A stretch of 64,000 nt of DNA. Origin: an uncultured Draconibacterium sp. GTDB taxonomy: Bacteria; Bacteroidota; Bacteroidia; Bacteroidales; Prolixibacteraceae. Each line of letters opens with the position of its first letter. The first letter of the stretch is position 1. Shown here piece after piece: positions 13,259-33,500 of the stretch. The translations under genes were made by a program, and so were the position numbers. The notes under the pieces are model-generated. The model saw only the letters and a program-made list of their open reading frames with translations, was not told the origin of the DNA and did no database searches. Location: positions 571,136-635,135 of the forward strand of contig OY781113.1 in NCBI GenBank assembly GCA_963676455.1. The letters are read 5' to 3'.

Positions 13259-14272
13259 TTAAATGTTTAGCTCTTTTAAGAGCGTTTTTAGTTCTTCGCT
13301 AGAGGGTCTTGGTGCATCGGCAGAAACTATGTTTCCTTGTGGATCTATTAAAATAAACCGGGGTATTCCATCGATTTTATATGCTGTTACAAAATCGGAC
13401 ATAAAATTTTTATCTGCCAACAGTTGAATTCCCCCCATTTTTTTTTCTTTAATCATTTCTTTCCACTTTCCATAGGCATCTGGCTTGTCAACAGAAATAC
13501 TTACGAATTCTATGTTTTTCCCATGGTATTCTTGCTCTACTTTTTGTAAAAACGGGATTTCAGCCTTACAAGGCCCACACCAAGTTGCCCACACATCAAT
13601 ATATACATATTTTCCTTTCAAATCCTCTAATGAAGTGGTGCCTCCTTTGTAATTTTCGTAGTTCACAAATTTTGGAGATTCTTTTCCCCGGCCCAAAACA
13701 TCTCTTAAATACACATTTTGTTCGTATGCATTGGTTAAATATTCAGTTAACCCTTCTAGCTGCGTTATTTGCTGTACAGAAAAGGCAGAGTCCAGATTCT
13801 TGGTGTTTTCAAGTAAATCATTGAATTTATTAACTATACCTCTCGCTTTATTTTCAAATGCTTCTTTATCTAAGTCAAACATTGATTGATCACTAAACTC
13901 TTGCTCTTGTAGTAAGTACATTTTAGCCAAATAATTGCTTCCTTCAGCTCCAGTTCCAGAATAACTAATGGTTTCATCAAATTTTTTTGCGTCAATAGTC
14001 ATATGTATATCAAAACCATTCTTTAAATAAATATTAGTCGATTCTGTTCCATCAAATAGATTATAGACTCCCGCTTCTACTTTCAAAGTATCAGAAAAGG
14101 TTCCATCTTTATACACTTTTATTTTTTTTGAATAGGTTCTGGAACGAACAATTAGGGAATCTGAATTTTGGTTGGTAATCGTTCCCGAAAAAGAAGCATA
14201 ATCTTTTGGGGCTTCTTTTTTGCATGATACAAGTACTAAAGTAATGATCGCTGTGTAAATTAAATTCTTCAC
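13259..14272 (-). CDS. TlpA/ResA-family thiol-disulfide oxidoreductase lipoprotein
   Basis: Lipobox LVSC; YIDVWATWCGPCKAE; GIPRFILIDPQG. Confidence 0.92.
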   Translation of the reverse strand: MKNLIYTAIITLVLVSCKKEAPKDYASFSGTITNQNSDSLIVRSRTYSKKIKVYKDGTFSDTLKVEAGVYNLFDGTESTNIYLKNGFDIHMTIDAKKFDETISYSGTGAEGSNYLAKMYLLQEQEFSDQSMFDLDKEAFENKARGIVNKFNDLLENTKNLDSAFSVQQITQLEGLTEYLTNAYEQNVYLRDVLGRGKESPKFVNYENYKGGTTSLEDLKGKYVYIDVWATWCGPCKAEIPFLQKVEQEYHGKNIEFVSISVDKPDAYGKWKEMIKEKKMGGIQLLADKNFMSDFVTAYKIDGIPRFILIDPQGNIVSADAPRPSSEELKTLLKELNI

Positions 14273-14287
14273 TGGATTTATTTTAGA

Positions 14288-16264
14288 TTAATTTTTAAAT
14301 TTTGAAATGCCCCTTTTTAACCAATTGTAATAGTTATCAACATTTGGCGTATAGGCTATGGGGTCTATAAGATTCTCTCCATTATGGTCCATTAACACAT
14401 AAAAAGGTTGCGTATTCGCTTTATATTTAATGGTTTGTAATTCACTCCATTTTTGACCAATGTACTTCAATTGATTGCCAGGGCGCAACTTAGACTCTAC
14501 CACATCTCCTTCTGGCAAAGGGCGCTTATCATCAACATATAAAGAAATCAAAACAACATCATTCTTTAAAATATTTAATACCTTTTCATTTGGCCAAACG
14601 TTCTGTTCCATCTTTCTACAATTCACACATGCCCAACCCGTAAAATCTATCATGACTGGTTTTCCCTTTTCTTTTGCATAGGCCAAACCTTTATCATAAT
14701 CATTAAATGCCAAAATATCGTGGGGTTCCAGTAAATGTGCTCCTTCAGGTAAACCATCATGATTAGTTGCTGATGCTAACGTTCCACTTCCAACTTTAGT
14801 AAAACCTACTCCATAAGGTGATTCACTATAATTTTGTGGCGGAGGAAACGCACTGATCAAGTTCAATGGCGCACCCCAAAGTCCAGGAATCATGTAAATG
14901 GTAAACGATAATACCAATAAGCCTAAACTTAATCTACCGACAGATATATGTGTCACTGGAGAATCGTGCGGCAATTGCATTTTTCCAAATAGATACAATG
15001 CTAAGGCTCCGAATATGGCAATCCAAATAGCAAGGAACACTTCGCGTTCCAAAAAGTGTGCTTGCAATACCAAGTCTGCATTCGATAAAAATTTAAACGC
15101 CAATGCCAGTTCCAAAAAGCCCAGGACCACTTTAACGGAATTTAACCACCCACCAGACCTCGGGAGCGAGTTCAACCATCCTGGAAAGGCAGCAAACAAC
15201 GCGAATGGTAAAGCAAGCGCCAATGAAAATCCTAACATTCCTATGATAGGTGCCAGCCCTCCCTTGGATGCTGCCTCGACCAATAGCGTGCCCACAATCG
15301 GTCCCGTACAGGAGAACGACACGATCGCAAGGGCTAGAGCCATAAAGAAAATACCGATAAGCCCGCTCCTGTCTGCCTGCCTGTCGACCTTGTTGGCCCA
15401 TTTGTTAGGCAACATGATTTCAAAGGCTCCTAAAAAGGACAACGCAAAGATGACCAACAGCAAGAAGAAAATTATATTGAACCATACATTAGTGGCCAGT
15501 GCGTTTAGGGAATCCGCCCCAAAGATGCCCGTTACGGCCGTACCCAACAGTACATAGATGAAAATGATACTGACTCCAAAAATAATGGCGTTCTTGATGC
15601 CCGCAGCTTTGGTCTTGCTCTGCTTGGTGAAAAAACTCACCGTCATGGGGATCATGGGGAACACGCATGGAGTCAACAGAGCCGCAAATCCCGATAAAAA
15701 AGCTATGAAAAAGATGGACCACAGTCCTTTGTGTGAATCGTCATTATTCGTTGTATTTTCATTGGCTAAAGCAGCTGTCTCTGTACTTTTTTCTGTAGTA
15801 CTCGCAATAGCATTTTCATCCAATTTAAAAACTAATTCCACTTCAGAAGGTGGCAAACATCTGCTGTCGTCGCAAACCATAAATTCCACAAAAGCATTGA
15901 TGGATTTCACATCACCTTCAACCACTATTTTTTGTTTGAAAGTCGTCGTTTTTTCGAAAAACTTGATTTTCATTCCAAAAACGGGGTCATCAATGGTATG
16001 CCCTTCTTCTTCTGAGGTATTCCCAACTAGGTTAAAAATTCCGTTGCTATCATCATACGTAAATGTCGTTGCTATAGGTCCACCTTCTGGAACCGTTTGT
16101 GAATATAAGTGCCATCCAGATTCTATGGTTGCTTTAGCTATTAACTCATATTCTGTGTCTGAAACCTTTTCAACAGACGTTATCCATTTTACAGGTGTTA
16201 AAACTTGTGAATTAACTGTGGCGCTTAATAATAAAGCACATAATACAATAAGGTACTGTCTCAT
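14288..16264 (-). CDS. dsbD: Thiol:disulfide interchange protein DsbD (N-domain, membrane domain, thioredoxin)
   Basis: GWHLYS/CDDSRC N-domain; [10 protein letters not shown] and FSCTGP membrane cysteines; [14 protein letters not shown] thioredoxin domain. Confidence 0.95.
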
Positions 16265-16278
16265 TTTCTAATACTGAT

Positions 16279-16725
16279 TTATTTGATATTGAATACCAGA
16301 TCGACTTCGGTTGGTGGTAAACATCTGCTATCATCACATACCATAAATTCAACTGTTGCATCGACTTTGAATGGTACTTTTTCTTTTAATTTGATTCGTT
16401 GTTTGAAAGATGCTTTATTCTCAAAAAATTTAATTTGCATTCCAAAAACAGGATCATCAACCATATGTCCTTTGTCTTCCAGGGTATTTCCTTTTTTAAG
16501 GTAGTTTCCGTTGCCTTTAAAAGTAAAACTTGTTGCAATTGGACCACCTTCTGGAACATTCTGAGAATACAAATGCCATTTAGACTCTATAGTTGCAGTT
16601 GCAACTAACTCGTATTCTGTATCTGATATTTTAGTTACTGATGTAGACCATTTTACAGGTTTTAAAATTTGTGCTTGTGCGAAAGTTGATGTAAGCAAAG
16701 CAATTACTAAAATTAAATTTTTCAT
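16279..16725 (-). CDS. Stand-alone DsbD N-terminal (DsbD-alpha) domain protein
   Basis: KWHLYSQ..GGP and [12 protein letters not shown]; clearly paralogous to the N-terminus of the adjacent DsbD. Confidence 0.9.
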   Translation of the reverse strand: MKNLILVIALLTSTFAQAQILKPVKWSTSVTKISDTEYELVATATIESKWHLYSQNVPEGGPIATSFTFKGNGNYLKKGNTLEDKGHMVDDPVFGMQIKFFENKASFKQRIKLKEKVPFKVDATVEFMVCDDSRCLPPTEVDLVFNIK

Positions 16726-16742
16726 TTATTTATAATATTAAA

Positions 16743-19553
16743 TTATTGTTTCGGTTTAAATACAACTTCATACGATTTACCCCCACTAAGAACTTCTTTT
16801 GCCATAGCTTGAATATCCTTTTTACTCATCTTGTTTACAATGTCTTCGAAATTTCCAGGATCATTAATATTTTCATTAAATCTAAAATACGCTGTTAGCC
16901 ATTGCATATCGAAAGCATTTTTATCTTTTCCCTGTTCACGTTCTTTAATAAAATTGGTCCTTGTTTTACTTAAATCGTCATCATTAATCGTTCCATCAGC
17001 TATTTTTTGTAGCTCTTCATTAACAATATTGACTAATTTATCGGCCATATCCGGATTACAATCAAAACGGAATGCTACATAAATTTGAGGTTTTGGTTCT
17101 CTAATAAAGTAAGCACCAGCTTGTGGACTATATGCACCGCCCTCAGCTTCTCTTACTGTTTCTGTTACCCGTAATTGTAAAATATCTCCCAAAGCACTGG
17201 TATAAATGCTGTTTTTTATTGAATATGGCATTTCTTTCAGATAAGCAATATTCACAGATGCTTTTGGATCTTCCATGGTTAAATAGATATCCTCATCTAT
17301 TTTGTTAGAATTCCATTCAGGACTATTACTTTCATAGGATTCTTTTGTATTTTTAGTAGGAATACCAGCAAAATATTTCTCCAAAAGTGGTTTTAATTGC
17401 TCTATTTTCACATCACCTACTATGAAGAACTCAAAATCTGAAGCATCGGCAAAACGCTGGTTGTAAATCGTTTTAATTTTTTCAAGCGAAATGGCATCAG
17501 CATAATCTTTGTTAAATATTCGTTTTCTGGGATTGTTTTTACCATATAAAGTAACGGTTAAACTATCTTTCATTTTCTCACCAATATCCTTACTTCTTCT
17601 AACAATATAATTGTCTATATTGCTCTCTAAAACTTGAAAGGCTTGTTCGTCAAAACGGGGTTTTACAAAATAAACATATACCATTTGTAACATGGTTTCT
17701 ACATCTTTTGTATTTGAAGATCCAGAAAGCGATTCGTTTATATCTCCAAGGCTAATCCTGACATTAGCCGTTTTTCCTGCTAATATTTTTTGCAAATCGG
17801 TCGCATTGAAATCACCTAAACCAGACATTGAAATTAAATCACCTAACAAATTTGCAGATGGCAACTCATCATCACTTAAAAGCGAGGTTCCACCATAACT
17901 AACAGCACTTAAAGACACCATGTCCTTTTCTTTATCTACATACTTATAATGTACTTTTATACCGTTACTCAAGACAAATGTGGTTGATCCGGTTTCTTTA
18001 TTAGGAATTGTTTTTGATATTGCTCCTGCTTTAATATTTAAATCGGATACTAATGTTTTTCCATCTAAAGCTTCGGTATAAGGGGCTATGTCAGCATCAC
18101 TTTCTACTTCTGAAATAATTTGTTTGGCTTGGTTTTCGGTTAAATTATCCTGGCCCTCAACACCTGTTACATTTAAATATCTATTTTCTTTAGAATATAA
18201 CCTCTTTATTGTTTCATGGAGTTCTTGTGGGGTAATTTCTTTAAAAATTTGCTTTGCTAACTCATATTCCTTTTCAATATCCGTCATTGTGCTATTTGAT
18301 AAGTAGTTGCTTTGGATAACGTTCTCTATTTCCCCATGGCTGAGATCATTTTTCTTGGCAATTTGATTTTCATAAGAACTTTTAGACTTAGCAATAGATC
18401 TATCTATCTCTGATTGCGTAAATCCAAATTTTACGGCTCTTTCCACTTCTGTCAACACTTCCTTAAAAGCCTTAGCTTGTTTATTTAATTTAGGATAGAT
18501 TCCTATACTAAAAACATTGGAGGTCCTGGTAAATCCCCAATATCCAATTTGAGCCCCTAAAAAAGCAGCATCAGGATTTTGTGATTTTTCTGAAACTCTT
18601 TCAGACAGCATGCCTGTTGCCATTGACTCCAGTAACGTCCTTTTTAAATCTGCAACAGTTTCTGGTTTTAGTGACTTTTTATGACGAATCCTTAAACTAA
18701 CGGATGCTGTTGACACCTCAGGATCTGTACCAAAAACAAAGGCCATGTCTTTATTGCCTGGTATATCAACTATAACACGCTCTTTTGGGTTTTCTACCGC
18801 TGGAATATCAGAAAATTTCTCTTTAATTTTTTGCTCTATATCATTCACATTTACATCACCCACAACGGCAATAGCTTGTAAGTCTGAACGATACCAGTCG
18901 TGATAAAAATCGCGTAACGCTTTATAATCAAACCCTTCAACCACAGACATCAATCCTATCGGCATTCTATCGGCATATTTTGAATGGTTATATGTAATAG
19001 GCAAAGCCTTTTCAAACAAACGTCTTCTACCACTTTGACCAGTGCGCCATTCTTCTTTTATAATACCTCGCTCTGCATCGATTTCTTCGTCGGTTAACAA
19101 CAAATAATTGGACCAATCGATTAACACTGTTAAACAAGTATCTATCAACCCGTCTTTTGTTGGTATATTGTCTAAATTATAGACTGTTTCATCAAAATCA
19201 GTATAGGCATTAATGTCCTGACCAAACACAGCACCGTGCTTTTGTAATGTATTTAAAATGCCTTTACCAGGGAAATGTTCTGTTCCGTTAAAAGCCATGT
19301 GCTCTAAAAAATGGGCTAATCCACGTTGATCCTCATTTTCTAAAATAGAACCTACGTTTTGTATGATGTAATAACTTGCAGCGCCTTTTACCACATCGGT
19401 ACTTTTTATGTAGTAAGTCATTCCATTGGGCAAAACGCCTTTTTTTATGGTCTTATCTACAGGTAATGGAGTTTCATAATTTAATGGCTGGCCTACTGAT
19501 TTGAACGTAAAAGCCACTGATAGAGTAAAAAGAAAAAATAAAATGCGTTTCAT
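16743..19553 (-). CDS. M16 family zinc metallopeptidase (PqqL-like)
   Basis: GLAHFLEHMAFNGT (inverted HxxEH), NAYTDFDETVY, ERGIIKEEWR and RETVREAEGGAY-type C-terminal motif. Confidence 0.95.
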   Translation of the reverse strand: MKRILFFLFTLSVAFTFKSVGQPLNYETPLPVDKTIKKGVLPNGMTYYIKSTDVVKGAASYYIIQNVGSILENEDQRGLAHFLEHMAFNGTEHFPGKGILNTLQKHGAVFGQDINAYTDFDETVYNLDNIPTKDGLIDTCLTVLIDWSNYLLLTDEEIDAERGIIKEEWRTGQSGRRRLFEKALPITYNHSKYADRMPIGLMSVVEGFDYKALRDFYHDWYRSDLQAIAVVGDVNVNDIEQKIKEKFSDIPAVENPKERVIVDIPGNKDMAFVFGTDPEVSTASVSLRIRHKKSLKPETVADLKRTLLESMATGMLSERVSEKSQNPDAAFLGAQIGYWGFTRTSNVFSIGIYPKLNKQAKAFKEVLTEVERAVKFGFTQSEIDRSIAKSKSSYENQIAKKNDLSHGEIENVIQSNYLSNSTMTDIEKEYELAKQIFKEITPQELHETIKRLYSKENRYLNVTGVEGQDNLTENQAKQIISEVESDADIAPYTEALDGKTLVSDLNIKAGAISKTIPNKETGSTTFVLSNGIKVHYKYVDKEKDMVSLSAVSYGGTSLLSDDELPSANLLGDLISMSGLGDFNATDLQKILAGKTANVRISLGDINESLSGSSNTKDVETMLQMVYVYFVKPRFDEQAFQVLESNIDNYIVRRSKDIGEKMKDSLTVTLYGKNNPRKRIFNKDYADAISLEKIKTIYNQRFADASDFEFFIVGDVKIEQLKPLLEKYFAGIPTKNTKESYESNSPEWNSNKIDEDIYLTMEDPKASVNIAYLKEMPYSIKNSIYTSALGDILQLRVTETVREAEGGAYSPQAGAYFIREPKPQIYVAFRFDCNPDMADKLVNIVNEELQKIADGTINDDDLSKTRTNFIKEREQGKDKNAFDMQWLTAYFRFNENINDPGNFEDIVNKMSKKDIQAMAKEVLSGGKSYEVVFKPKQ

Positions 19554-19636
19554 AAAAACTATATTTTAATTGATGTTTATCTTTTTAAGAATAAATCCTT
19601 AACTGTTTGTTCTGTAGTTATTTTGAAAGTTTTGTT

Positions 19637-19832: not shown

Positions 19833-20741
19833 CTAATTATTAAATATTTCGGATAATGTTGTTTGTAGATTTTCTCCCCTAAGGTTTTTAGCCACAATTT
19901 TACCGTCCGGATTGATTAAAAAATTTGCAGGAACGGTTGTTACACCATAGATATTTGCAACTGTACTTTCGGCAATCGTTTCATCTAACAAATTTAACCA
20001 CGGCAAGTTATCCTCTTTAACTGCTTTCATCCAGGAGTTCTTATTTCTATCTAGTGAGATAGAAATAATTTCAAAATTGTTACTCTTGAATTTCTTATAA
20101 GCTTTAATTAGATTGGGGTTTTCTGCTCTACATGGTTTACACCATGATGCCCAAAAATCTACTAAAACATATTTTCCACTAAATTGACTGAGACTATGCT
20201 CTTTATCTTTCGCGTCCTTAAGTGTAAAAGCGCTTGCTTGTTTTGTATCAGCTTCTTGTTGAGTTAGATAAGTATTATCATTGGGTGAAGCTTCTAAAGA
20301 ACCAGTATTAAAGCTTATCGAAAACTTTTCTATTTTAGGAGGTAAGCACATAGCATCTGTGCATGCCATATATTTTATAGTAAAATTTAAATTTATTTCT
20401 TCTTTTGATTTCAACCTTAAGCTTTGGGTAAAGATGGCTCCTTTAGAGTAATAAGAACTTTGCTCATGCCCTTTCTCTATTCCTCTTTCTTTAGTTCCAT
20501 CAATTAATTCAATATTGCTATTTTCTTTAAAACTTATTTGAGTTGGCATTGCCAATCCTGCATTAGATGCTTGTTGCGTATAAATATGCCATGGCTCCTT
20601 TACTGTTGCCTCCATTTTAAGATCGTAAGTAAGCGGACCTGTTTTTACAGTGTCAATTTTCCATGATACCATTTGGTTATTCTGGGAAAATCCCCAAAAT
20701 GCTGTCACACTCATTATTAGTAAAAAAATAATTCGTTTCAT
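19833..20741 (-). CDS. DsbD-N domain fused to a TlpA thioredoxin
   Basis: N-half PWHIYT..YMACTDAMCLPP; C-half LVDFWASWCKPCRAENP. Confidence 0.9.
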   Translation of the reverse strand: MKRIIFLLIMSVTAFWGFSQNNQMVSWKIDTVKTGPLTYDLKMEATVKEPWHIYTQQASNAGLAMPTQISFKENSNIELIDGTKERGIEKGHEQSSYYSKGAIFTQSLRLKSKEEINLNFTIKYMACTDAMCLPPKIEKFSISFNTGSLEASPNDNTYLTQQEADTKQASAFTLKDAKDKEHSLSQFSGKYVLVDFWASWCKPCRAENPNLIKAYKKFKSNNFEIISISLDRNKNSWMKAVKEDNLPWLNLLDETIAESTVANIYGVTTVPANFLINPDGKIVAKNLRGENLQTTLSEIFNN

Positions 20742-20771
20742 AATATAACTTGAATTTGATTTATTTAAACA

Positions 20772-22181
20772 CTACTCTGCTCTACGTGCCAGCTCAATCA
20801 TTTGAATTACTTCTTCTGCAGCAACTTCATCTTTGCCTTCAAAACCTTCAAGCTTAAAGCGTATTCTACTCTTGTCGTCAATAATAAATTTAGCAGGGAT
20901 ACCTTTTGCTTTGAAAGCAGTGACAGCAGGAGGAGTCATATTATCAGGATCTATGGCATCTATAAATAAATCGAAATCATAATTTCGTTTGCTTAGGAAC
21001 TCCTTAGCGGTTGTTAAAGGAGCCGCTACGTTTTCCCAAGTATCAATAAATAGAACCTTAACATCAGGATCATTTGAATAATGGTCAACAACCATCTGCA
21101 TGGCAGGAAAGGATGCTACACACGGGCCACACCAGGTAGCCCAAAAATCCAATACAATAGTTTTTCCCTTAAAATCAGCCAGGGTCACCTTTTTACCGTT
21201 CACATCTGTCACATAAAAGTTAGGTGCTGGCTCATTTACCATTAAGGGTTTTACTTGGTCTTGAATTGTATTTTTGAATCCTTCTTGTAATGAAGCAACA
21301 AAAGCGTCGACATCTTTACCTGGATTTAATTTTTGGTAACCCACTTTAACCAGATCGATGTATCTCTTTTCGTTTTGGCCTTCCTTTATTGCATTGATCA
21401 AAACAGGCAGCGCTTCCTCGTAATTTCCATCTAATGATGATGATAAAAAGGCATAGTTCAAAATAAGTTCACCATCTTTATTTTCGATGTTCTTGTATGC
21501 CTCTTTGGTATATTTATAAGCTTCCTCATTTTTTCCTGCCTTGAAGAGAAGTTTGCCATACATATTGATATAATTATTGTATGTAAATATGGGATCTAAC
21601 TTTAGCGATTTGTACAAGGCTGGCTCACTCTTCATCTTTTCCGCATCTTTTAAATGTTTGGTGGCAATATCCAAAGCCTGATCGATATCTATTGGCTCCA
21701 TTAACTCAATATTCATAGTTATAGCCGCTACCCGATAAACCGGATCTTCCATTGAATTAATGTATTCCATTACTTTTGTGCCATTAGGTACTTCAGCATA
21801 AGACATGGCTACTATGTTTCTTGCCATATCCATGTTCACATCGGGATATTCATCACTGATCGATTTAAAGTGAGCCTCTGTTTCTTCTGGACCTCCCTCT
21901 ATGTCAATAAAAAACATCACTATTGCCATACTTGTCTCATCGCTTTGCGGATATTTCTTACTGAGAATTTTTGTTATTTCACTACGTTTTACGGTATCTT
22001 TTGCATAATATTGGACTAATACCAGTAGATCCTCTGCTGTACCATTCTTTAAGTCACTTATTTTTTGCTGTAGCGTAGCCTCATTTTTTTCGTTTAGTAG
22101 AGATGCTAGTTTAGATTCGGCGTTCTGTGCTAGAACGCTGAATGTACCAAGCATTAATATGACAAAAAATACTTTTTTCAT
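20772..22181 (-). CDS. TlpA thioredoxin with N-terminal helical/TPR-like region
   Basis: Signal peptide; VLDFWATWCGPCVASFP; GIPAKFIID. Confidence 0.9.
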   Translation of the reverse strand: MKKVFFVILMLGTFSVLAQNAESKLASLLNEKNEATLQQKISDLKNGTAEDLLVLVQYYAKDTVKRSEITKILSKKYPQSDETSMAIVMFFIDIEGGPEETEAHFKSISDEYPDVNMDMARNIVAMSYAEVPNGTKVMEYINSMEDPVYRVAAITMNIELMEPIDIDQALDIATKHLKDAEKMKSEPALYKSLKLDPIFTYNNYINMYGKLLFKAGKNEEAYKYTKEAYKNIENKDGELILNYAFLSSSLDGNYEEALPVLINAIKEGQNEKRYIDLVKVGYQKLNPGKDVDAFVASLQEGFKNTIQDQVKPLMVNEPAPNFYVTDVNGKKVTLADFKGKTIVLDFWATWCGPCVASFPAMQMVVDHYSNDPDVKVLFIDTWENVAAPLTTAKEFLSKRNYDFDLFIDAIDPDNMTPPAVTAFKAKGIPAKFIIDDKSRIRFKLEGFEGKDEVAAEEVIQMIELARRAE

Positions 22182-24664: not shown

Positions 24665-26116
24665 CTAATCATTTTCAATTAGATTGGGGTTTTGTGAAGT
24701 AACTACCCCTCCAAATCTTAATACCAATCTTTCTGGAGTTAGTGTATAACTTTCCAATAAGTCACCTTCGGAATTATATTTATTATGTGTATAATTCACC
24801 AGGTTATTATAATCTGGATCTACAGATAATCTTCTCATATCAAACCATCTATACCCGCTTAATGGAAACTCTCTAATACGTTCTTCAAAAATAAATTTCA
24901 CTAAATTGTTTTGATTTGATGCAACTTCTGTTGGAACAGACGCGTCGCTTACAGGCATTCTTTTAGATCTAAAATTTTCAAGTGAGGTAGTTGCTTCTTC
25001 CAAAAATCCTAAACGTGCATTCGCCTCAATTATTAATAAATAAACGTCTGGTAAATATACTCCTGCTTGTTGCTGTAATGGACCAACTTTTCTTAACATG
25101 CCGTTAGGGTAATAAGGGGAAAAACCAAAAAACTCAGCATCGGAGAAAAAATTCAACCTTAAATCGGAATCATTATACAAATTTGCTGTTTCTGTACTTA
25201 TTACAAATTCATTATTTATAAATGCCCACGAATTAAAAACAGACCTGTCATACATTACTTCTGTATTATTTTTTGATAAAATGGATGCAGGACCAAAAAA
25301 AGGATCTATTGGTGTAAATACACCTTCATCTAAAAGTTCTAAATTATAATCATAAAGATTTACATTAATTTCAGAGCTTTGCGCATAGGTTAATGCTTGC
25401 TTAAGGTGAACTAATGCACTATCATATTTATGCTGAAACATTAATATTTTACCTAGCAAACCTTCTGCTGCTGCTTTAGATGCTCTATGCCTGCTACTAA
25501 CCGATTCTGGAAGATTGGGTAGTGCGCTTTCTATATCCTCGATAATGAAGTTATAAACTTCTTCCACTGTATTTCTAGTGAAGTTGGTTGAAGTTATATT
25601 TGAATATGTAACGATAGGAAGTCCTAAATCTGAACTAGCTGTAGACGCATCGTATGGCTTTCCATAATAATTTATAAGCATAAAATAATTAAAAGCTCTT
25701 CCTAAACGAGCTTCTGCTTCAAGCTTTTGCTTTTCTGAATCAGTTCCACCATTGGAGTCACTCACTTCATTAATTATTTTATTATAAACATACAAGGATG
25801 CCATTAATGGCTCAAGCTCTTGTGAATTTTGATCTGGATTATAAATATCGGCCTTCCACTGAAATGTTCTGCGAGGTCTTAGTTCAATAGTTGAATAAAA
25901 TGGATCGATAGCTGCCACTTCATCTCCCATTGGAACAGTAATATTAGACAACTCTCTTAATGAAGGATCTTCTAATAACAAATCATAATCTTCAGTATTT
26001 TGTGCTATTAAATTCCCTTTGGGAATCACTTCTAAAAAATCTTCACTACACGCAACCATTGATGCAGCAAGTAATGAAAAAACAAATAACCTTATGTGAA
26101 ATATTTTAATATTCAT
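24665..26116 (-). CDS. susD: RagB/SusD-family nutrient-binding lipoprotein
   Basis: Lipobox MVAC-SEDFLEVIPKG; EARLGRAFNYF; YLLIIEANAR; ERIREF...RWFDMRR. Confidence 0.92.
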   Translation of the reverse strand: MNIKIFHIRLFVFSLLAASMVACSEDFLEVIPKGNLIAQNTEDYDLLLEDPSLRELSNITVPMGDEVAAIDPFYSTIELRPRRTFQWKADIYNPDQNSQELEPLMASLYVYNKIINEVSDSNGGTDSEKQKLEAEARLGRAFNYFMLINYYGKPYDASTASSDLGLPIVTYSNITSTNFTRNTVEEVYNFIIEDIESALPNLPESVSSRHRASKAAAEGLLGKILMFQHKYDSALVHLKQALTYAQSSEINVNLYDYNLELLDEGVFTPIDPFFGPASILSKNNTEVMYDRSVFNSWAFINNEFVISTETANLYNDSDLRLNFFSDAEFFGFSPYYPNGMLRKVGPLQQQAGVYLPDVYLLIIEANARLGFLEEATTSLENFRSKRMPVSDASVPTEVASNQNNLVKFIFEERIREFPLSGYRWFDMRRLSVDPDYNNLVNYTHNKYNSEGDLLESYTLTPERLVLRFGGVVTSQNPNLIEND

Positions 26117-28063
26117 GAGTAACTATTTTTGTAATTATTAAAAGGATAAATGAACACCTAAAGCAATGCTTCCTTGATTTCTTTTAATATTTCTTTGACC
26201 AGTACCATAATAGGTGTATTGAAATTCTGGATCGATGCCAGATTTATTAGCTTTCCATAGCATTAAATTTGATACTGATAATCTGAAAGTTAAACCATCT
26301 ATCTTAAGTTTATCTAACACATTTTTGGGAATTCCGTAAGACAATGTAATGTCTCTTAATTTAATATAGGAAGCGTTTAATACATTTGTATTTCCTTTCA
26401 TATAATAATAGGTATCTCTGGTATTTCCAGTAAAAGTTCCTGAAGGATCATAAGAAGGAATATCTGTAATCAATTCGTCACCCGGCTTCTTCCACCTGTT
26501 TACAAAATCACTATGAGGAACATCTTCTAAAAGTGATGAGTAATTTGAATTTACATCCTTTCTCATCACATGGCCTAAATTGTATACCGTATTTATACTT
26601 AAATTAAAGTCTTTATATCTAAAAGAATTAGAGAAACCACCACTCCAAATTGGTTGCGATGTTCCCATATATATAACATCTTCTGCCGAAGTAACATTTG
26701 GCTCTTTAGTTATTGTACCATCACTTAAACGGATTAAAGGATCTCCTTCACCATCCAACCCTTGGTAGTCGTAGGCAAAGATGGCAAAAGCTGGATAGCC
26801 TTTTAAGTATGCCAAATTCACTTTTTGAGCTCCTGTTGTTACATCACCCGGTAATAATAATTCAGTAATTTTGTTTTTATTGTAAGCCATGGTAAACAAA
26901 GTAGTCCAACCAAAATCTTCATTTTGAACATTAATTGTTTTCAATGTTAACTCAAAACCTTTATTTTCCATAGAACCAAAATTCCCAATAGCTGATGGAA
27001 ACCCTGAAAACACATTAAGCGGTAATTGGCCCAACAGATTATCTGTATTTTTCTTATATATATCTAAATAAGCTGTTATTACATTAAGCAATCCAAAATC
27101 AACACCAAGATTTAAAGTTTTGGTACTTTCCCATTTTAAATTTGGGTTACCAGGTGTTTGAATAGTTAATGGGATGATGTTTCCGGTTAAACTATAACCT
27201 GTTTGTGGCCTTAAAATATCATATGATGAAGATGTCCCTGGTGTAGGCGCGTTACCCGTAATACCATATGTTCCTCTTAATGTCAGAAAATTAAGGGGTG
27301 TGACATTTTCAAAAAATGTCTCTCTCCCGATGTTCCACTTACCACCAACACTCCATGTTGGCTTATTTTGTGCTGATTTATCTAATCCGAACAAATTACT
27401 CTTATCCCGTCTCCAACTTCCATTAATGGTATATTTCCTATTTAAGGTATAGCCTGCATTCATATAGTAAGAAGTAAATCGACTTAAAACTTCAGATCGA
27501 GTAAAGGAGTCATCTGGTAAAAAACTTTGGTTCCCAGCGTTTGGCATTACCGGGTTATCGATTCCATTATTTTTTAATGTAGCATAATCTACAGATAAAT
27601 AGGTCTGTAATAACGGATTATAACCACGAACTGTTGTATTTGTAATTTCGGTTAATTGTTCTTGTGCTTCTTGTCCTAATATTACATTAACTTGATGCTT
27701 ACTATCATCCCAACTTTTATCGAATGATAGTTGATTTCTTACGGTATAATTTCTATTAGAAATGTTGCTTTCACTGTATTTGCCTCCGGTTTCGGGTAGA
27801 TAATAAATAGGAGTGGCATCTGGTGAATCTGCAACGGTAAACTGGGCTAATTCACTTCGTACACTATAGCTTTCATCACTTGTGTAATTGGAAACCTTAT
27901 TAGAACCTTGAGTGTAGCTATAAGTACCATTAAACGTAATTCCCCACATAAGAACCTCCGAAATAGATTTAAACTAAAGTTATCTATTCCTCCAGCCCTG
28001 ATTAAATCCTTTTGCTAACGTAGAGGGGAGCCCTGATTAAAAGTCTTGCTATATTTGGAACAG

Positions 28064-28265
28064 GCTCTTTGTGTAACCGATTTTTAAAATGGTGCTTTTA
28101 AAGCCCGTGCGTAATTCTGGTTGAAATGTAAAAAGCCCCTGAAGAGCATTTCAAGGGCCTGTTGATAAATCCAGTGGTGGCACTGACGATTAATGCCAGC
28201 GACCCCGTTCAGAATATTTTTCGACTCAAAGATACATTTCCTTAGGGCTTTTTACTGATTAATTC
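28064..28265 (+). ncRNA. Putative IS110 bridge RNA (boundaries approximate)
   Basis: Lies in the left non-coding end downstream of a TATATTTG -7-like element (28050-28057). Contains stems (TTGAAATG/CATTTCAA, GCCC/GGGC) and matches to both junctions: CGTAATTC at 28110-28117 and TCAGAATATT at 28209-28218. Confidence 0.5.
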
Positions 28266-28272
28266 TAAAATT

Positions 28273-29652
28273 ATGGCAAGGAAAAAGAAAATTGAAATGG
28301 ACATCGTCAACCATTATGCAGCAGGAATCGATGTGGGGAGCAAGTCTCATTTTGTTGCAGTAGGGCAGGCCCTGGACGATGTAAAAGAATTTGGCGTATA
28401 TGCCGAGGATTTGATTGAACTATGCCAATGGTTGTTGTCATTCGGAATCACAACGGTAGCAATGGAATCGACAGGTGACTATTGGCAAAACCTCTATGTA
28501 GAATTGCAAAAACATGGCATTGAAGTAATCCTGTGCAATGGAAAATTTACAAAACATGCCAAAGGGAAAAAGACCGATGTAAAAGACAGTCGATGGATTC
28601 AGAAACTACATTCACTGGGATTATTATCTGGCAGCTTTTTGCCTGACAAAACCACTGAAATACTTCGCACTTATTGCCGTCAAAGGGCAAATTGGATCGA
28701 GCAGGCAGCAAGCGCATCTCATAAAATGCAGAAGTACTTAAAACTTCTGAACTTTCGATTGGATGTTGTCGTAAATGATGTGTGTGGACTTACAGGTCTG
28801 AACATTATCCAGGACATTTGCAATGGAAACCTCGACCCATTTTTATTAGCAGAACACAGACATTACAATTGCAGGAAACCAAAACAGGAAATAGCAAAAG
28901 CACTACATGGAAACAACCGCGAGGATTACCTGTTTGGCCTCAGACAAGAGTTCGACAGCTACAGGTTTTTCCAAAGAAAAATGAAAGCATGCGACAAAGA
29001 AATTGAGCGGCTAATCAAAAATGAAATAAAAAAGTCACCCGAAAAGAAAAAACTTAAAACCACTGAAAAACCATACAAGAAAATCAACAAAAATGCCGTT
29101 GACATTAAGAATTTTAACCAAATTGCTTTCCAGTACTTTGGGGGAACCGACTTAATGGCTGTTGAAGGAGTAAGCCATGCTACGGTTATGGCAATAATGA
29201 GCGAAATAGGAATCGATGGTTTTAAAAAGTTTAAATCCGCAAAACAGTTTTGCTCCTGGTTACGACTGGCCCCAAACAATAAAATATCAGGAGGGAGAAT
29301 CCTGAGCAACAAAATCCCAAAAGGAAGCAACCGACTAAAAATAGCATTACGTCATTCTGCAAATGCAATTGGAAATTTAAAAGATACACACCTGTCTGAC
29401 TTTTTTCGCAGAATAGCTTTCAGAAAAGGAAGACAGTCGGCAGTTTCTGCCACCGCCAGAAAACTGGCAACAATTATCTGGACAATGATTGTGAAAAATG
29501 TACCCTATAATCCTCCCTCCCAATACCTGTTCCTCGACCAAAAAAGAAAGATGGGAATAGCAAAAAGAATTAAAAAACAAATCGCTAAATTTGACATAAA
29601 ACCCAATGAAATTGGACTTGGTAACTCATTGAGCCCCAACTACAATTTTTAA
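28273..29652 (+). CDS. IS110-family DEDD recombinase/transposase
   Basis: GIDVGSK (D), AMESTG (E), KTDVKD (DD) RuvC-like domain; C-terminal Tnp20 domain with RLAPNNKISGG catalytic-Ser motif. Confidence 0.95.
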   Translation: MARKKKIEMDIVNHYAAGIDVGSKSHFVAVGQALDDVKEFGVYAEDLIELCQWLLSFGITTVAMESTGDYWQNLYVELQKHGIEVILCNGKFTKHAKGKKTDVKDSRWIQKLHSLGLLSGSFLPDKTTEILRTYCRQRANWIEQAASASHKMQKYLKLLNFRLDVVVNDVCGLTGLNIIQDICNGNLDPFLLAEHRHYNCRKPKQEIAKALHGNNREDYLFGLRQEFDSYRFFQRKMKACDKEIERLIKNEIKKSPEKKKLKTTEKPYKKINKNAVDIKNFNQIAFQYFGGTDLMAVEGVSHATVMAIMSEIGIDGFKKFKSAKQFCSWLRLAPNNKISGGRILSNKIPKGSNRLKIALRHSANAIGNLKDTHLSDFFRRIAFRKGRQSAVSATARKLATIIWTMIVKNVPYNPPSQYLFLDQKRKMGIAKRIKKQIAKFDIKPNEIGLGNSLSPNYNF

Positions 29653-31511
29653 CGTTAGTCAGAATATTATCAAAAACATCAATAATCACCCCTCCAATTA
29701 AACGAGTGTTAAAAGCTTCTGAAGTTTCATCTGAAAAATTTCTTTCATCTAAAGGGTTATAATTCAAATCAATTCTGGATCTTGCTTCAAAATCTGCCCT
29801 AACATCTTCTGTTAGCATCCCCATAAAAGGAATTGAAATATTGTTACCATTATCGTCTCTAAATAATTGATATGGAAAAAAGCTATTGGTAATACTTAAA
29901 TTATTCTTAGTAAGGGATTTTGTTTTTGTGAAATCGGTAATCAAGAAAGACCTAATTTTGTTATTAAATTTAAAATCTTGTCTTACATTTAATTTATAAA
30001 GTTCATCAGTATCCCCAGGTCTATCTGATTTTGTATCAGTATATGCCATAGATGCGTAAGCTGAATGCTTTTCACCACCAAATGAAAGTGATAAAGTATG
30101 ATTTGTTTGCATGGCTTTCCGATACCATAATTTCTTAATTTGATCTCTATTATTGATATTCGATAAACTATCCAGCCTGGCATTTGCAACATTACTAGAT
30201 ATAACACCTCGATATTCGTCATAAAGCGTTTGTAAATGTGGAGGGGTACCGCTAGCGTCAAAAAAATAAGCGTTTAATTCATTATAAGAGTTAGATTCCG
30301 GATCAAAAACTTCTTTTGCTGCATTAATCAATTCTGAGCTATTCAGATATGGTTGATAATCCAAATCTGGACGACCTTGAATATTAGTAAAAGCATCATA
30401 CTCAATCTTCAATTCACTATTGTTTTCAGCCTTTTTTGTGGTGATTACAATAACACCATTTGCTGCTCTAGCCCCCCAGATAGATGAAGCAGTTGCATCC
30501 TTTAAAACCGTAACATCCTCTATATCTTGTGGATTTATATAAGAAATGTTATTGTTTGGAATCCCATCTACAACGAATAAAGGATTTCTATTTGTACCTG
30601 TACCTGTAGCTATATTATCGTCTGAATTAAATGTCCCAATACTTGTTAAACCTCTAATTAAATAAGGATTAGAAGCTGCATCCGGAGAATTATTAATAGT
30701 CAATCCAGCAACCAATCCATCTAGTTTTTGAACTATATTCATTGAGAAGTTTCTTTCTTTAGCTATTGTTAGATCTGGCTTAGAAAAAGACCCGGAACTA
30801 CGCTCTTTTGAGAGCTTTTGGTAACCAGTTGAAACGATCTCAACAGCTTCAAGTTCTGTAACATCTTCTTCTAATATAACATCTATATTTGTTTTATCAC
30901 CTACTAAAACTTCTTTAAACTTAAACCCCAAAGACTTGAAAACAAGTATATTTTCACGCGATGGAACTGTTATTTTATAATTCCCGTCATAATCTGATAT
31001 AACGCCTGTCGTAGTTCCCTTAATAAATATAACTGCACTACCAATAGGTAGCCCATTTGCATCTGTTACCTTTCCAGAAACTTGAATTTTTTGTTGAGTG
31101 TTTCTACTTTTAACTATAATTTTATTATCTGTTGATATTACAGTATAAAAATCATTTGAAGAAAGACTGCTTTTCAAAAGCTCATCTACGCTAATTGTAC
31201 CTTTTTGTAATTGTACTTTTGGTGCATCCTTAAATAAATCTTGCGGATAAATAAAACGGTAATCCGTTTGTGTCTTGATAATATCAAAAACATCTTCAAC
31301 CGTTACTTCTTTATCGGTATCAATTTTAACCTTGTTTTGAGCGAAACTGTTTTCAGGTTTCAACGAAAAAGCCGTTGTGCAGAATAAAATAATAAAGGTT
31401 TTAATAATCAATAATCGCAACCGTTTTTGCATGAGATAACGGCCTGTGCTAAATTTAATTTCCATAAATTTGCTTTGTTTTTATTAGACAATTGTTTGAT
31501 AAATACTATCT

Positions 31512-31561
31512 AAAGAGACGAAGTTGAGTCATCGCCAAATGTTTGACTTCGCTCTCTTTTT
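31512..31561 (-). terminator. Hairpin between fecR and susC (terminator/attenuator-like)
   Basis: AAAGAG-ACGAAGT...ACTTCG-CTCTCTTTT imperfect inverted repeat in the 5' leader of susC. Confidence 0.55.
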
Positions 31562-31638
31562 ATGTTTTTATAATAAAATCATTTTACTCTTTCGTAGAAA
31601 AATCTTAAAATCATAATTTCTAAATTTCAATTTATAGT

Positions 31639-32811
31639 TCACTTTAGTATAACCCTTTTATTATGAATTTCGTAATTTTTAATAACTCCGAAATCTTTAA
31701 TGATTTCCAAAATTTCATCAATACTTTGTTCTTTACCTAACACACCACTAAAACCTACTGATTCCAAGTCCTTATTTTCAAAATCCACCTCCATATCATA
31801 CCATCTAGATAAAACTTGCATAATCTCTTTTAGGCTTTTCCTTTTAAAGCTGAATACGCCTTTTTTCCATGAAATTTGATCGTATACATCAACCATGGAT
31901 ATGTTTGCGTTTTTGGTAAAAATATTTAGGTTCAATTGTTCACCTGGTTTCAGAATTTTGTTTTGGTTTTCAAAACTGACAGCCACCTTGCCCTGTACCA
32001 GTGTAGTATATACATTAGTTTCTTCTTTGTAAGCCTTAATATTAAACTCAGTACCTAGAACCTGTACTTCCTGTTGGTCGTGAATCACCCTAAAGTCAGC
32101 CCCTTTGTGTTCGGTGCTGTGGGATACGTCAAAATAGGCTTCGCCATAGACTAATTCCACTTGACGGCTCTCCCCATCGGTAAAACTCACTGGGAATTTT
32201 AGCAGGCTTTCGGAGTTTAACCATACCTCAGTATCGTCGGACAGTTTGATGTGAAATTGACCGCCTTGTGGTACAGAAAGGTAGTTATAAACCAACTCTT
32301 GTGATGAACTATTTGCTGAATTGTTATATACAATTTCTTCACCGTTGCTGGTTGCGTTTTGGGTTTGGTAGGTTATACCTTTTACTAGAGCGACTGCTTC
32401 TCCATTGTTTAAGGTAAGGGTAGCCTTTTCTGTTCCTGGTTCGATTTCGTTGTTGACAATGATTGGAGTTGTATTATTAAATGAAGAGTCGGTTATATTG
32501 TCCTTAAAAAAATAGGTAGTGGCCAAAATGCCGACAACCATAGCAGCGGCAGCGTAATGCCAATATATATTGCGTACCGGAACTTCTATTCTAGATTTTA
32601 TTTTTTTCCAATCGGATTTTTTGTCGATTTGTTTTTTTATGTCTAAACGCTGTTTTATAAGAGATTCATCCGTTAGATTTGTAAGAATATGGGTTTTATT
32701 ATCTTCATTAAACAAGTCGGATTTGTTTAAATCTGTAGGTTGTTCATCCTTTAATAGCGCATTTGCTATTTGTTTGGATAGAATTATGATTTTATTAAAA
32801 ATAGGCAACAT
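31639..32811 (-). CDS. fecR: FecR-family anti-sigma factor
   Basis: TM segment (HYAAAAMVVGIL); GGQFHIKLSDDTEVWLNSES, GEAYFDV, VLGTEFNI and SWKKGVFSF motifs. Confidence 0.93.
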   Translation of the reverse strand: MLPIFNKIIILSKQIANALLKDEQPTDLNKSDLFNEDNKTHILTNLTDESLIKQRLDIKKQIDKKSDWKKIKSRIEVPVRNIYWHYAAAAMVVGILATTYFFKDNITDSSFNNTTPIIVNNEIEPGTEKATLTLNNGEAVALVKGITYQTQNATSNGEEIVYNNSANSSSQELVYNYLSVPQGGQFHIKLSDDTEVWLNSESLLKFPVSFTDGESRQVELVYGEAYFDVSHSTEHKGADFRVIHDQQEVQVLGTEFNIKAYKEETNVYTTLVQGKVAVSFENQNKILKPGEQLNLNIFTKNANISMVDVYDQISWKKGVFSFKRKSLKEIMQVLSRWYDMEVDFENKDLESVGFSGVLGKEQSIDEILEIIKDFGVIKNYEIHNKRVILK

Positions 32812-32957
32812 ATTATATCATTATTTGGAGTTATGACGACAAAATGTTGCACTAGGGTTAAAATATTTGAAAAATTGTTATTTTTTTTGAATTCACAGGA
32901 TATTGAAAGTGTTATGAAACGATTTCAAAAAGAATTAACGTGCGTTCAATTTTGTTC

Positions 32958-33500
32958 TTAATTAACAGATACAAATATAAAAGCAATAAGGATGAAGTAG
33001 TCTTTTAATAAAGGTTTGAGGCGTTTGTAGGCTATTTTTTTTTGTGCCTTAACTGTATTAATTGAAATGTTCATTTCTTTGGCAATTTCTTCATTTGAAA
33101 AACTTTTGATACTCAAACGAATGATTTGGGCACATCGGTTAGGCAATTTGCTAATGGCCTCTTCGATAATCTTTGAGGTCTCAATAATTACCACTTCACG
33201 CAAAAAAAAAGGTTCGGTTTCGAGTTGTTCCATTTCACCAACTGATAAACGATCGGTTGTTTTAAAATGTTTGCTTTTAAGGTAATCCAAGCATTTGTTT
33301 TTTACCGAAGTGTATAAATACGATTTAATGTTGTTTTCATCACGAAATTCAGTTTTATCTTCCCAAATTTTTACAAAGACATCCTGAACAATATCTTTAG
33401 AGACCTCTAAATTTTCGATGTACTTATTGGCAAAAAGGCATAGCGATACATAAAGTTTATTAAAAAGACTTTTGTATTCTTTTAAATCCAACTTATACAT
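32958..33500 (-). CDS. ECF RNA polymerase sigma-70 factor (Bacteroides expansion type)
   Basis: DIVQDVFVKIW, SYLYTSVKNKCLD, LPNRCAQI and ISINTVKAQ motifs. The likely start is ATG at 33500 rather than 33605. Confidence 0.92.
   Translation of the reverse strand: MYKLDLKEYKSLFNKLYVSLCLFANKYIENLEVSKDIVQDVFVKIWEDKTEFRDENNIKSYLYTSVKNKCLDYLKSKHFKTTDRLSVGEMEQLETEPFFLREVVIIETSKIIEEAISKLPNRCAQIIRLSIKSFSNEEIAKEMNISINTVKAQKKIAYKRLKPLLKDYFILIAFIFVSVN

Follow-up and report, generated by a model that had tools for sequence, protein, structure and literature searches.

A SusC/SusD locus with thiol reductases and an M16 peptidase in place of carbohydrate-active enzymes: a candidate system for redox-assisted import of disulfide-stabilized proteins or peptides

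What does a SusC/SusD importer carry when no carbohydrate-active enzyme (CAZyme) is encoded beside it? A large share of the SusC/SusD pairs of Bacteroidota is located in CAZyme-free loci. We address the question with a locus in a 64,000-nucleotide stretch of DNA from an uncultured Draconibacterium sp. (assembly GCA_963676455.1, contig OY781113.1, positions 571,136 to 635,135 of the forward strand); this whole stretch is the window, and all coordinates are positions within it. Twelve co-directional genes on the minus strand fill 33500 to 13259: these encode, in order, an extracytoplasmic function (ECF) sigma factor, a FecR-type anti-sigma factor, SusC, SusD, four TlpA-type proteins with a thioredoxin (Trx) fold (TlpA1–TlpA4), an M16 peptidase, a free DsbD N-domain (DsbD_N), a full-length DsbD, and a fifth TlpA-type protein (TlpA5). 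From gene content, intact catalytic motifs, synteny and homologies, all read from sequence and its comparison, we propose, tentatively and at a little less than even confidence, that the locus represents a Bacteroidota-wide family of CAZyme-free, sigma/anti-sigma-controlled SusCD systems for the ligand-induced import of small disulfide-stabilized proteins or peptides, which would be reduced by electrons relayed from DsbD to the TlpAs and digested by the M16 peptidase.

The original prediction for this DNA had listed these genes as a co-directional set with five exported CxxC proteins and no glycosidase. All of them are present on the minus strand as judged by Pfam, NCBIfam and motif reading, and a signal peptide or lipobox is seen at the N-terminus of each exported protein of the locus. 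The series starts with an ECF-type sigma-70 factor (32958–33500; Pfam Sigma70_r2 and Sigma70_r4_2); its open reading frame (ORF) is open up to 33605 (32958–33605), and the probable true start is the ATG at 33500, as indicated by the 180-aa ortholog in a related locus (L001; the loci collected for comparison carry L numbers). A −7-like box, TATATTTG, is located at 33552–33559 on the same strand as the sigma gene. The FecR-type anti-sigma gene (31639–32811; Pfam FecR and FecR_C) is the second in the series. The intergenic gaps are 8–62 bp from susC through TlpA4 (21 bp between susC and SusD), 279 bp between TlpA4 and M16, and 14–17 bp from M16 through TlpA5. The 279-bp spacer has no consensus −7 box; an apparent hairpin in this spacer was considered as a terminator and rejected, because it is no better than those of shuffled sequences (z −0.24). 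No glycoside hydrolase (GH), polysaccharide lyase (PL) or carbohydrate esterase (CE) domain was identified by Pfam in 13259–33500, and the variant loci described below add peptidases and never a GH; the claim that this is not a polysaccharide locus is therefore retained.

The importer gene is interrupted in the window. A 1725-bp insertion sequence (IS) of the IS110 family (27938–29662, plus strand; transposase 28273–29652, 73.8 bits to Pfam DEDD_Tnp_IS110 and 44 bits to Transposase_20) splits susC at codon 601/602, with a boundary that is ambiguous by 3 bp (ATT); the junction was mapped by alignment to L001, which is 94–97% identical. The 5′ part (codons 1–601; 29663–31465, minus strand) encodes the signal peptide, an STN-like region, the CarboxypepD_reg domain, the plug and the start of the barrel (Pfam CarbopepD_reg_2 and Plug); the 3′ part (codons 602–1200; 26138–27937, minus strand) encodes the β-barrel. 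Excision of the element in silico yields an uninterrupted ORF for a 1200-aa SusC. The contigs of three related isolates skip exactly 27938–29662 (1725 bp) and have an intact susC, as do L001 and a Confluentibacter locus (L005); because the isolates lack these 1725 bp, the insertion is judged recent and strain-specific. The same IS110 element is multi-copy elsewhere in the genomes of related isolates.

The rebuilt SusC matches TIGR04056 with 548.7 bits (cut-off 368.25) and TIGR04057 with 56.9 bits (cut-off 46.2), and its plug is present. The earlier designation as an STN-type SusC stands for SusC and is qualified for STN: the STN domain of the window protein is below threshold (19 bits, E 0.0013; cut-off 28.4), although homologous SusC proteins match STN. 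The partner is a SusD/RagB-family lipoprotein (24665–26116) that exceeds the Pfam cut-offs for both SusD-like_3 (73.1 bits) and SusD_RagB (40.7 bits) and has the acidic stretch SEDF after its lipobox MVAC. The mature SusC, SusD and FecR proteins contain no cysteine, so the reductases encoded downstream are not needed for the transporter itself; a role for the TlpAs in the upkeep of transporter cysteines was considered and rejected for this reason.

For both importer proteins, the closest relative of solved structure is found in ButCD of Bacteroides fragilis (PDB 8YPT/8YPU). The best PDB match of SusC is ButC (8ypu_C, 1.1e-67), which extends barrel-wide and is ahead of glycan SusCs and RagA; the closest PDB sequence to SusD is ButD (8ypt_A, 2.5e-20). 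ButD is also first in a Foldseek search with the AlphaFold2 (AF2) model of SusD (pLDDT 84; 5.4e-20, TM-score TMt 0.81), with RagB at ranks 7–10 and the characterized glycan-binding SusDs below both ButD and RagB. ButCD takes up BfUbb, a ubiquitin-like toxin of 8.8 kDa with a disulfide at its C-terminus, in intact form; the authors of that study regard proteins, not glycans, as the native substrates and propose a function in protein nutrition (PMC11467351). The butCD locus is likewise CAZyme-free and protease-associated; however, its neighbor is a Zn-metalloprotease (ZnMc) that has no counterpart gene at the window locus, no sigma/FecR, TlpA, M16 or DsbD has been described around butCD, and the 22% identity between the SusDs identifies a homolog, not an ortholog. 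RagAB of Porphyromonas gingivalis (PDB 6SLI and others), a SusCD-type peptide importer, is a detectable homolog as well (169 bits) but more distant than ButCD, and lacks sigma/FecR, STN, linked reductases and M16. With the classical Sus-like polysaccharide utilization loci (PULs), the window locus shares the SusC/SusD pair, regulators of its own and accessory lipoproteins encoded downstream; it differs in that it encodes no glycoside hydrolase, lyase or esterase, its accessories being thiol oxidoreductases and a peptidase.

The five TlpA-type proteins all have a CxxC motif and a cis-Pro loop; the motifs named in the original prediction were verified, four of them encoded before M16 and the fifth after DsbD. 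TlpA1 (23559–24656) is a lipoprotein with a DUF4369 N-domain before its Trx fold (WCAPC), and TlpA2 (22244–23542) has a helical, TPR-like N-domain of ~285 aa (MCTPC); both assignments are from Pfam and motif reading. In TlpA3 (20772–22181; WCGPC), the AF2 model (pLDDT 90.2) predicts an all-α, TPR-like solenoid of 17 helices and ~300 aa, followed by a ResA/TlpA-like Trx fold; Foldseek matches this model to ResA, TlpA and Etrx through the Trx domain alone, with none for the helical N-domain. TlpA4 (19833–20741; Pfam DsbD_N and Thioredoxin_8/AhpC-TSA) is a fusion of a DsbD-α-like DsbD_N domain (C127/C132) to a Trx fold (WCKPC). TlpA5 (13259–14272; Pfam and motif reading), again a lipoprotein, has an N-domain of ~190 aa and a Trx fold (WCGPC). 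In the PDB, the Trx domains match ResA, rhizobial TlpA, pneumococcal Etrx and several TlpA-like proteins from structural genomics of Bacteroides; against the NCBIfam equivalog and subfamily models for ResA, TlpA and DsbE, the best scores are 71–94 bits, none reaching the cut-offs of 123–230. By these comparisons, the five are members of the TlpA/ResA/CcmG type at the family level only, not orthologs of a characterized member.

Their predicted source of electrons is encoded on the other side of M16. The full-length DsbD (14288–16264; Pfam DsbD_N, DsbD_TM and Thioredoxin_7) has all six canonical cysteines, that is, C131/C136 in the α domain, C200/C319 in the transmembrane (TM) domain and C546/C549 in the γ domain, and is preceded by the gene for a free, secreted DsbD_N (16279–16725; Pfam DsbD_N; C130/C135). 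In the known DsbD pathways (CcmG/ResA/TlpA, DsbC/G and PilB/Etrx-Msr, the latter with methionine sulfoxide reductase, Msr), we recognize the same canonical three-domain DsbD, the same CxxC and cis-Pro Trx folds and the same alternation of α-type and Trx-type carriers. However, here the five TlpAs have large accessory N-domains (DUF4369, TPR-like, DsbD_N) and are encoded inside a nutrient-importer operon, the free DsbD_N and the DsbD_N-Trx fusion are additional, and no gene for cytochrome c maturation, Sco or Msr is located near the window locus.

The peptidase (16743–19553) is a periplasmic single-chain M16 enzyme with the motif HFLEH (Pfam Peptidase_M16 and M16_C). Its best PDB match is 9LDY (‘Peptidase, M16 family’; 1.3e-157), and PqqL (6ofs, 2.5e-65) and FusC (6b03, 4e-39) also match; the match to PqqL is nearly full length (residues 30–870), and insulin-degrading enzyme and pitrilysin are far weaker. 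These matches place it in the PqqL/FusC subfamily; an exact-sequence look-up of the window M16 found no record. ‘Protease-associated import systems’, in which proteins are imported in a TonB-dependent manner, have PqqL or FusC as their peptidase in the periplasm (PMC6793856); FusC degrades imported plant ferredoxin for iron (PMC6793856, PMC6071955). The Fus system of Pectobacterium (FusA/B/C/D) and YddB-PqqL of Escherichia coli thus resemble the window locus in that a TonB-dependent transporter is paired with a single-chain M16 enzyme of this subfamily in the periplasm, and their logic is that a small folded protein is imported and then proteolyzed (PMC6793856, PMC6071955). The differences are that the window transporter is of the SusC type with a SusD lid, not of the FusA/YddB type, that the locus contains no gene for a TonB-like protein (FusB) or an ABC transporter (FusD/YddA), that its battery of reductases with DsbD has no counterpart in those systems, and that iron regulation is not indicated. 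According to a review (PMC12731061), the M16 peptidase HrrP degrades NCR peptides, which are rich in cysteine, and so provides a precedent for M16 enzymes that act on cysteine-rich peptides.

Is this combination of genes peculiar to one contig, or is it conserved? Homologs of the window SusD are 88–95% identical in close relatives, 57–68% in Maribacter, Zunongwangia and Flavobacterium, and ~45–50% in Pedobacter, Chitinophaga and Sphingobacterium. In every SusD-anchored genome context that we inspected (L001–L006, L087 and L088), sigma, FecR, SusC and SusD are followed directly by a TlpA-type gene. The architecture in Confluentibacter sediminis (L005) is identical to that in the window; Maribacter (L002) and Flavobacterium ajazii (L003) both have M16-DsbD_N-DsbD, the latter with fewer TlpA genes; Pedobacter (L004), Mariniflexile (L006) and Pseudoflavitalea (L087) have the TlpA-type gene immediately after SusD; and in Sphingobacterium (L088) two DUF4369-TlpAs and then M16 follow SusD. 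The L001 locus (on a contig from ERZ22147072; SusD 95% identical) is reduced to sigma, FecR, SusC, SusD, TlpA2 and the DsbD_N-TlpA4 fusion; a divergent transporter gene of the MFS/PTR2 type comes after it.

The individual TlpA types recur as well. The TlpA1 type comes after SusD in most related loci, the TlpA4-type DsbD_N-Trx fusion is also found in L001, L005 and L089, and the TlpA5 type is located after DsbD in L009, L019, L037, L038 and others. Chitinophaga sancti (L089), which was fetched through TlpA3 and not through SusD, has the same four TlpA types beside its SusC/SusD, that is, a DsbD_N-TlpA, a DUF4369-TlpA, two genes of the TlpA2 type and one of the TlpA3 type. TlpA3 alone has 1309 homologs at E ≤ 1e-20, and the full-length homologs listed for Pedobacter, Chitinophaga and Sphingobacterium are ~50–60% identical.

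Scanning metagenomes with an alignment of SusD provided 80 further loci, 58 of which extend at least 1.3 kb downstream; in 43 of these 58, a TlpA-type gene begins at most 400 nt after the end of SusD, and FecR is upstream in 34 of 35. The loci with no adjacent TlpA mostly belong to the most divergent members of the SusD subfamily and have three alternative gene sets. In one (L036, L146, L148 and L149), SusD precedes genes for an ABC ATPase, an ABC-2 permease that includes ABC_transp_aux, two MutS2-like proteins (MutS_III/V) and, last, a DUF4369-TlpA; another has an ABC transporter and a DUF4857 gene. In the third (L164, L168 and similar loci of aquatic metagenomes, with ~39% SusD identity), an 847-aa Met-zincin (DUF5118/DUF5117/DUF4953) replaces the TlpA genes, which by analogy recalls the Zn-metalloprotease neighbor of ButCD. 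The arrangement recurs in well over 100 fetched loci, which by this count exceeds chance, and the comparison indicates that the SusCD–TlpA linkage is conserved in three classes of Bacteroidota (Flavobacteriia, Sphingobacteriia and Chitinophagia).

The peptidase was used as a second anchor: a genome scan with an M16 alignment identified 80 loci in Flavobacteriaceae, whose ORFs were labeled by phmmer with the window proteins. Of 69 loci, 47 encode DsbD no more than 2.5 kb downstream of M16, 28 a free DsbD_N just 3′ of M16, and 42 have a Trx gene upstream. Co-directional SusC/D genes are located upstream of M16 in 32 of 62 loci; SusCD and DsbD both flank M16 in 23 of 62, and 9 of 62 have SusCD-TlpA-M16 with no DsbD. 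In the five genomes that are represented by two or three loci, at most one locus includes DsbD and the others are SusCD-TlpA-M16 cassettes; because the extra cassettes lack it, DsbD is probably an electron source that is shared between cassettes and not specific to one locus.

Five loci from Sphingobacterium and soil metagenomes (L088, L096, L108, L110 and L114) encode an M16 peptidase of ~980 aa that belongs to another lineage (only 21% identical to the window M16) and takes the place of the window M16 downstream of SusD-TlpA; in L096, genes for DsbD_N, DsbD and a protein of the TlpA5 type come next. The presence of an unrelated lineage at this position makes the Sphingobacterium-type M16 look like an independent recruitment to the cassette. 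Additional genes in the variant loci encode trypsin-like S1, S51, M20 and Met-zincin peptidases, a PNGase-F-like protein of the type IX secretion system (T9SS), DUF4843/PKD-like lipoproteins and DUF4465 proteins; no GH or other CAZyme was found in any of those inspected. Judged from these comparisons, the modules (sigma/FecR/SusCD, the TlpAs, M16, and DsbD_N/DsbD) are linked combinatorially but non-randomly.

How might such a locus be controlled? The spacers between FecR and susC, in the window and in the comparison loci (L001–L085 and L087–L161), share an architecture that we consider a candidate cis-antisense small RNA (sRNA) gene of the DonS type. In the window, the candidate (31465–31565, plus strand) has a −7 box, TAAATTTG, at 31465–31472 that overlaps the susC start codon, a hairpin at 31513–31556 with a folding energy of −16.1 to −16.8 kcal/mol (z −2.6 to −4.0), and a run of T that begins at 31557. 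On the sense strand, the spacers of 37 related loci have an AT-rich block that contains stop codons in every frame (TTAATTAATTAA..TAACTAACTAA) and CAAATTTATG at the susC start; an A-run is followed by a hairpin whose stem sequences differ while complementarity is kept. The antisense −7 box (TAnnTTTG) is located over the susC start codon in 28 of the 37 loci, and 29 of the 37 have a terminator-like antisense hairpin and T-run 85–105 nt downstream of the box; in an independent metagenome set, both signals are present in 26 of 38 loci. No structure was obtained from RNAalifold after the spacers had been aligned with MAFFT, the stems not being alignable by sequence, so the hairpins were scored by folding each sequence separately.

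Rfam identified no family at the gathering threshold within the window and only chance-level matches, with no family, for the spacer itself. A scan for sigma-70 promoter and terminator consensus sequences gave no more hits than shuffled sequences; this consensus is ill-suited to Bacteroidetes promoters. The DonS-type sRNAs of Bacteroides are summarized in PMC7366714 (citing Cao et al., 2016) as RNAs of 78–128 nt that repress susC homologs in PULs controlled by sigma/anti-sigma pairs. As far as that summary describes them, the likeness extends to the divergent orientation at the 5′ end of susC, the position between the anti-sigma gene and susC in SusCD loci of the sigma/anti-sigma type, and the length, which is predicted to be ~85–100 nt here and falls within the reported range. 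The differences are that an antisense −7 box together with a terminator is the sole basis of our prediction, and that the signature is found in loci of Flavobacteriia, Sphingobacteriia and Chitinophagia that have no CAZymes.

From the order and the homologies of the genes, we infer both the nature of the substrate and the following sequence of steps. The surface lipoprotein SusD would capture the ligand, and SusC would import it with energy from TonB; the STN-like extension of SusC would signal through FecR to free the ECF sigma factor and so increase transcription of the operon, and the DonS-like antisense RNA over the susC start may damp expression. In the periplasm, electrons would pass from cytoplasmic thioredoxin through the TM, γ and α domains of DsbD to the CxxC reductases of the TlpA type, either directly or via the free DsbD_N and the DsbD_N-TlpA4 fusion; these two could bridge to the lipoprotein TlpAs, which fits the alternation of α-type and Trx-type carriers known from DsbD chemistry. 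The DUF4369 and TPR-like N-domains of the TlpAs may hold the substrate or partner proteins. Once its disulfides are reduced, the cargo would unfold, fit into the clamshell chamber of the PqqL/FusC-type M16 and be cut into peptides, for which transporters encoded elsewhere would be required. A more specific version, which we regard as possible while giving it less credence, is that the family is a widespread, uncharacterized class of SusCD systems for disulfide-rich mini-proteins, for instance molecules similar to defensins, knottins, toxins or effectors that algae, plants, fungi or competitors produce. In this version, a separate sigma/anti-sigma pair and antisense sRNA would belong to every cassette, the relay would run from DsbD through a soluble DsbD-α shuttle or the DsbD_N-TlpA fusion to TPR- or DUF4369-containing TlpAs, and M16 would serve as the cryptase.

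Several observations weigh against the import-and-reduction reading. The split reading frame means that the importer gene is insertionally inactivated in the present genome, where the system would be unable to import; the identity of its SusD to ButD is modest; the L001 site has no TlpA1, TlpA3, M16 or DsbD; and no inner-membrane peptide transporter gene is encoded in the locus. To our knowledge, the TlpA family is known from the maturation of cytochrome c and copper centers, not from nutrient processing. In addition, M16-(DsbD_N)-DsbD stands alone, with no nearby co-directional SusCD, in 20 of the 62 M16-anchored loci, with unrelated housekeeping genes upstream (TilS, DabA, methyltransferases); M16 and DsbD may have a role that is general to the envelope, with loose coupling to SusCD.

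The last point leads to the strongest competitor, which we nevertheless judge unlikely: two loosely linked modules, that is, a housekeeping M16-DsbD_N-DsbD-TlpA5 unit for redox control and proteolysis (maturation of cytochrome c or copper centers, control of mis-oxidized proteins) located near a SusCD-TlpA importer of some thiol-requiring cargo that is not necessarily a peptide, the importer only tending to lie close to its electron supply. Such modules would account for the stand-alone loci beside TilS, DabA and methyltransferases, for the 279-bp spacer between TlpA4 and M16, for the SusCD-TlpA loci with no adjacent M16-DsbD (L001 and Mariniflexile L006), and for most soil SusD-anchored loci, which have TlpA and no M16 within 8 kb. 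However, paralogs of M16 follow SusCD-TlpA in the absence of DsbD in the 9 of 62 loci and in several multi-copy genomes, an unrelated M16 lineage occupies the same position in the Sphingobacterium-type loci, the spacer has neither a −7 box nor a significant terminator, and the full architecture is kept across genera (Confluentibacter and Maribacter, as well as Flavobacterium with fewer TlpAs). Fec-type control at the locus, together with a peptidase from the subfamily whose characterized member degrades imported plant ferredoxin (PMC6793856, PMC6071955), raises instead the prospect of Fus-like piracy, in which SusCD imports a small metalloprotein with cysteine ligands (ferredoxin, metallothionein or similar), M16 cleaves it and the reductases help to free iron, zinc or copper; TlpA also acts on Cys-ligated copper centers, and the Foldseek matches include TlpA-ScoI (4txo) and TlpA-CoxB (4txv). 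Control of the FecI/FecR/STN type is classically linked to iron. We consider this explanation somewhat less probable again: neither an inner-membrane metal transporter nor a FusB- or FusD-like protein is encoded in the locus, the Fus and PqqL systems do not include thiol reductases, and several differently regulated paralogous cassettes per genome imply a diverse class of substrates; the lack of a Fur-box-like site (≤3 mismatches) in the window is weak evidence in the same direction.

ECF sigma factors often govern envelope stress, and one is encoded here; the Trx domains match pneumococcal Etrx, surface thioredoxins that feed methionine sulfoxide reductase in defense against oxidative stress. 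SusCD/FecR/sigma might therefore sense an external oxidant or thiol-reactive compound, with TlpA/DsbD for repair and M16 for removal of damaged proteins. That is improbable, as a stress sensor needs neither a SusD lid nor dozens of ligand-specific paralogs, the locus has no Msr, peroxidase or catalase gene, and all five TlpAs have CxxC motifs with no peroxiredoxin-type active site among them. An ordinary PUL with its CAZymes encoded elsewhere is the least credible explanation and, in our judgment, very improbable. It would draw on the presence of SusC/SusD under a sigma and an anti-sigma factor, an arrangement known from host-glycan PULs, and on the genes at 1211–5362 of the window (plus strand), which encode a fusion of a BNR-sialidase-like and a YdjC domain (714 aa) and a GH57-like protein; but these genes are outside the locus, from which an IS element separates them, are encoded on the opposite strand and are absent from the orthologous loci, GHs are found in none of the variant loci inspected, and the characterized glycan-binding SusDs are below ButD and RagB in the fold search.

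Import of disulfide-stabilized proteins or peptides, followed by reduction and proteolysis, is thus the reading that we retain. Of the pathway described in the original prediction, the importing and processing parts are favored by the ButCD-like SusCD, the PqqL/FusC-type M16 and the conserved SusCD–TlpA linkage; the claim that the pathway is a dedicated one is weakened for M16 and DsbD by the stand-alone loci and by a DsbD that is probably shared. The comparative genomics that had been suggested as a check did recover the co-occurrence (SusCD and DsbD together in the 23 of 62 M16-anchored loci, TlpA after SusD in the 43 of 58), and the statement that no function had been characterized for this arrangement agrees with the literature that we searched, keratin degradation included, in which we found no description of SusCD with a TlpA battery, M16 and DsbD. 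The first interpretation is accordingly plausible and partly supported, now with comparative backing. The individual families are known and their genes are routinely annotated; what we would classify as new is their combination as a redox-assisted form of TonB-dependent, protease-associated import of proteins or peptides.

The surroundings of the locus include further mobile elements. Two IS5-like elements (DUF772 and DDE_Tnp_1 by Pfam), one at 10300–11760 on the plus strand and a second at 33753–35213 on the minus strand, 253 bp upstream of the sigma start codon, are 99% identical and inverted, and bracket the whole 22-kb locus together with one further gene; such an arrangement is reminiscent of a composite transposon or of an invertible segment, and the element is multi-copy in related genomes. 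The further gene (11880–13163, minus strand; Pfam SDH_alpha, 1.4e-63) belongs to the SDH_alpha/UPF0597 family, has no NCBIfam match and is located 95 bp after TlpA5 in the same direction; it resembles the YhaM/CyuA family of cysteine desulfidases. The theme of cysteine catabolism makes it a tempting member of the system; however, we rejected it because its adjacency is not conserved (0 of 86 labeled loci), and it is probably a passenger of the rearrangement, outside the conserved system.

Two public runs (X1 and X5), compared with window positions 9600–14600 and 26000–31600, appear to contain two related strains. A low-depth strain is identical to the window across 9600–10334 and 11742–14600; the other is ~tenfold more abundant, ~97% identical and has an intact susC. 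For 11771–14600, a stretch that covers the CyuA-like gene, TlpA5 and the 3′ portion of DsbD, no contig of the dominant depth was found at ≥88% identity. Beyond the second IS5-like copy, the plus strand encodes a 2751-aa T9SS-sorted protein (42370–50625) with CUB and PKD repeats (642-nt period), BspA-type leucine-rich repeats and 15 Listeria-Bacteroides repeats in tandem (period 183 nt). After it, the same strand encodes a protein of 1108 aa (50753–54079) with a Peptidase_S74 (endosialidase chaperone) domain.

For one large group of the CAZyme-free SusC/SusD pairs (1309 TlpA3-type proteins and hundreds of members of the SusD subfamily, in three classes), the family described here provides a testable answer to the question of cargo. 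The DonS-like signature suggests that the antisense mode of PUL control reaches beyond the gut Bacteroides. If the reading is correct, protease-associated import, now represented by Fus, PqqL and ButCD, would be extended to a redox-assisted form, and proteins of the TlpA, DsbD_N and DUF4369 families would acquire a catabolic role; if the mini-protein version is correct, SusCD systems would gain a new class of nutrient or a route of detoxification, and TlpA-family proteins a new physiological role. The reading, if correct, would also matter for our view of how Bacteroidota of marine and soil habitats obtain nitrogen and sulfur from disulfide-rich proteins that resist proteases, or of how they withstand cysteine-rich antimicrobial peptides.

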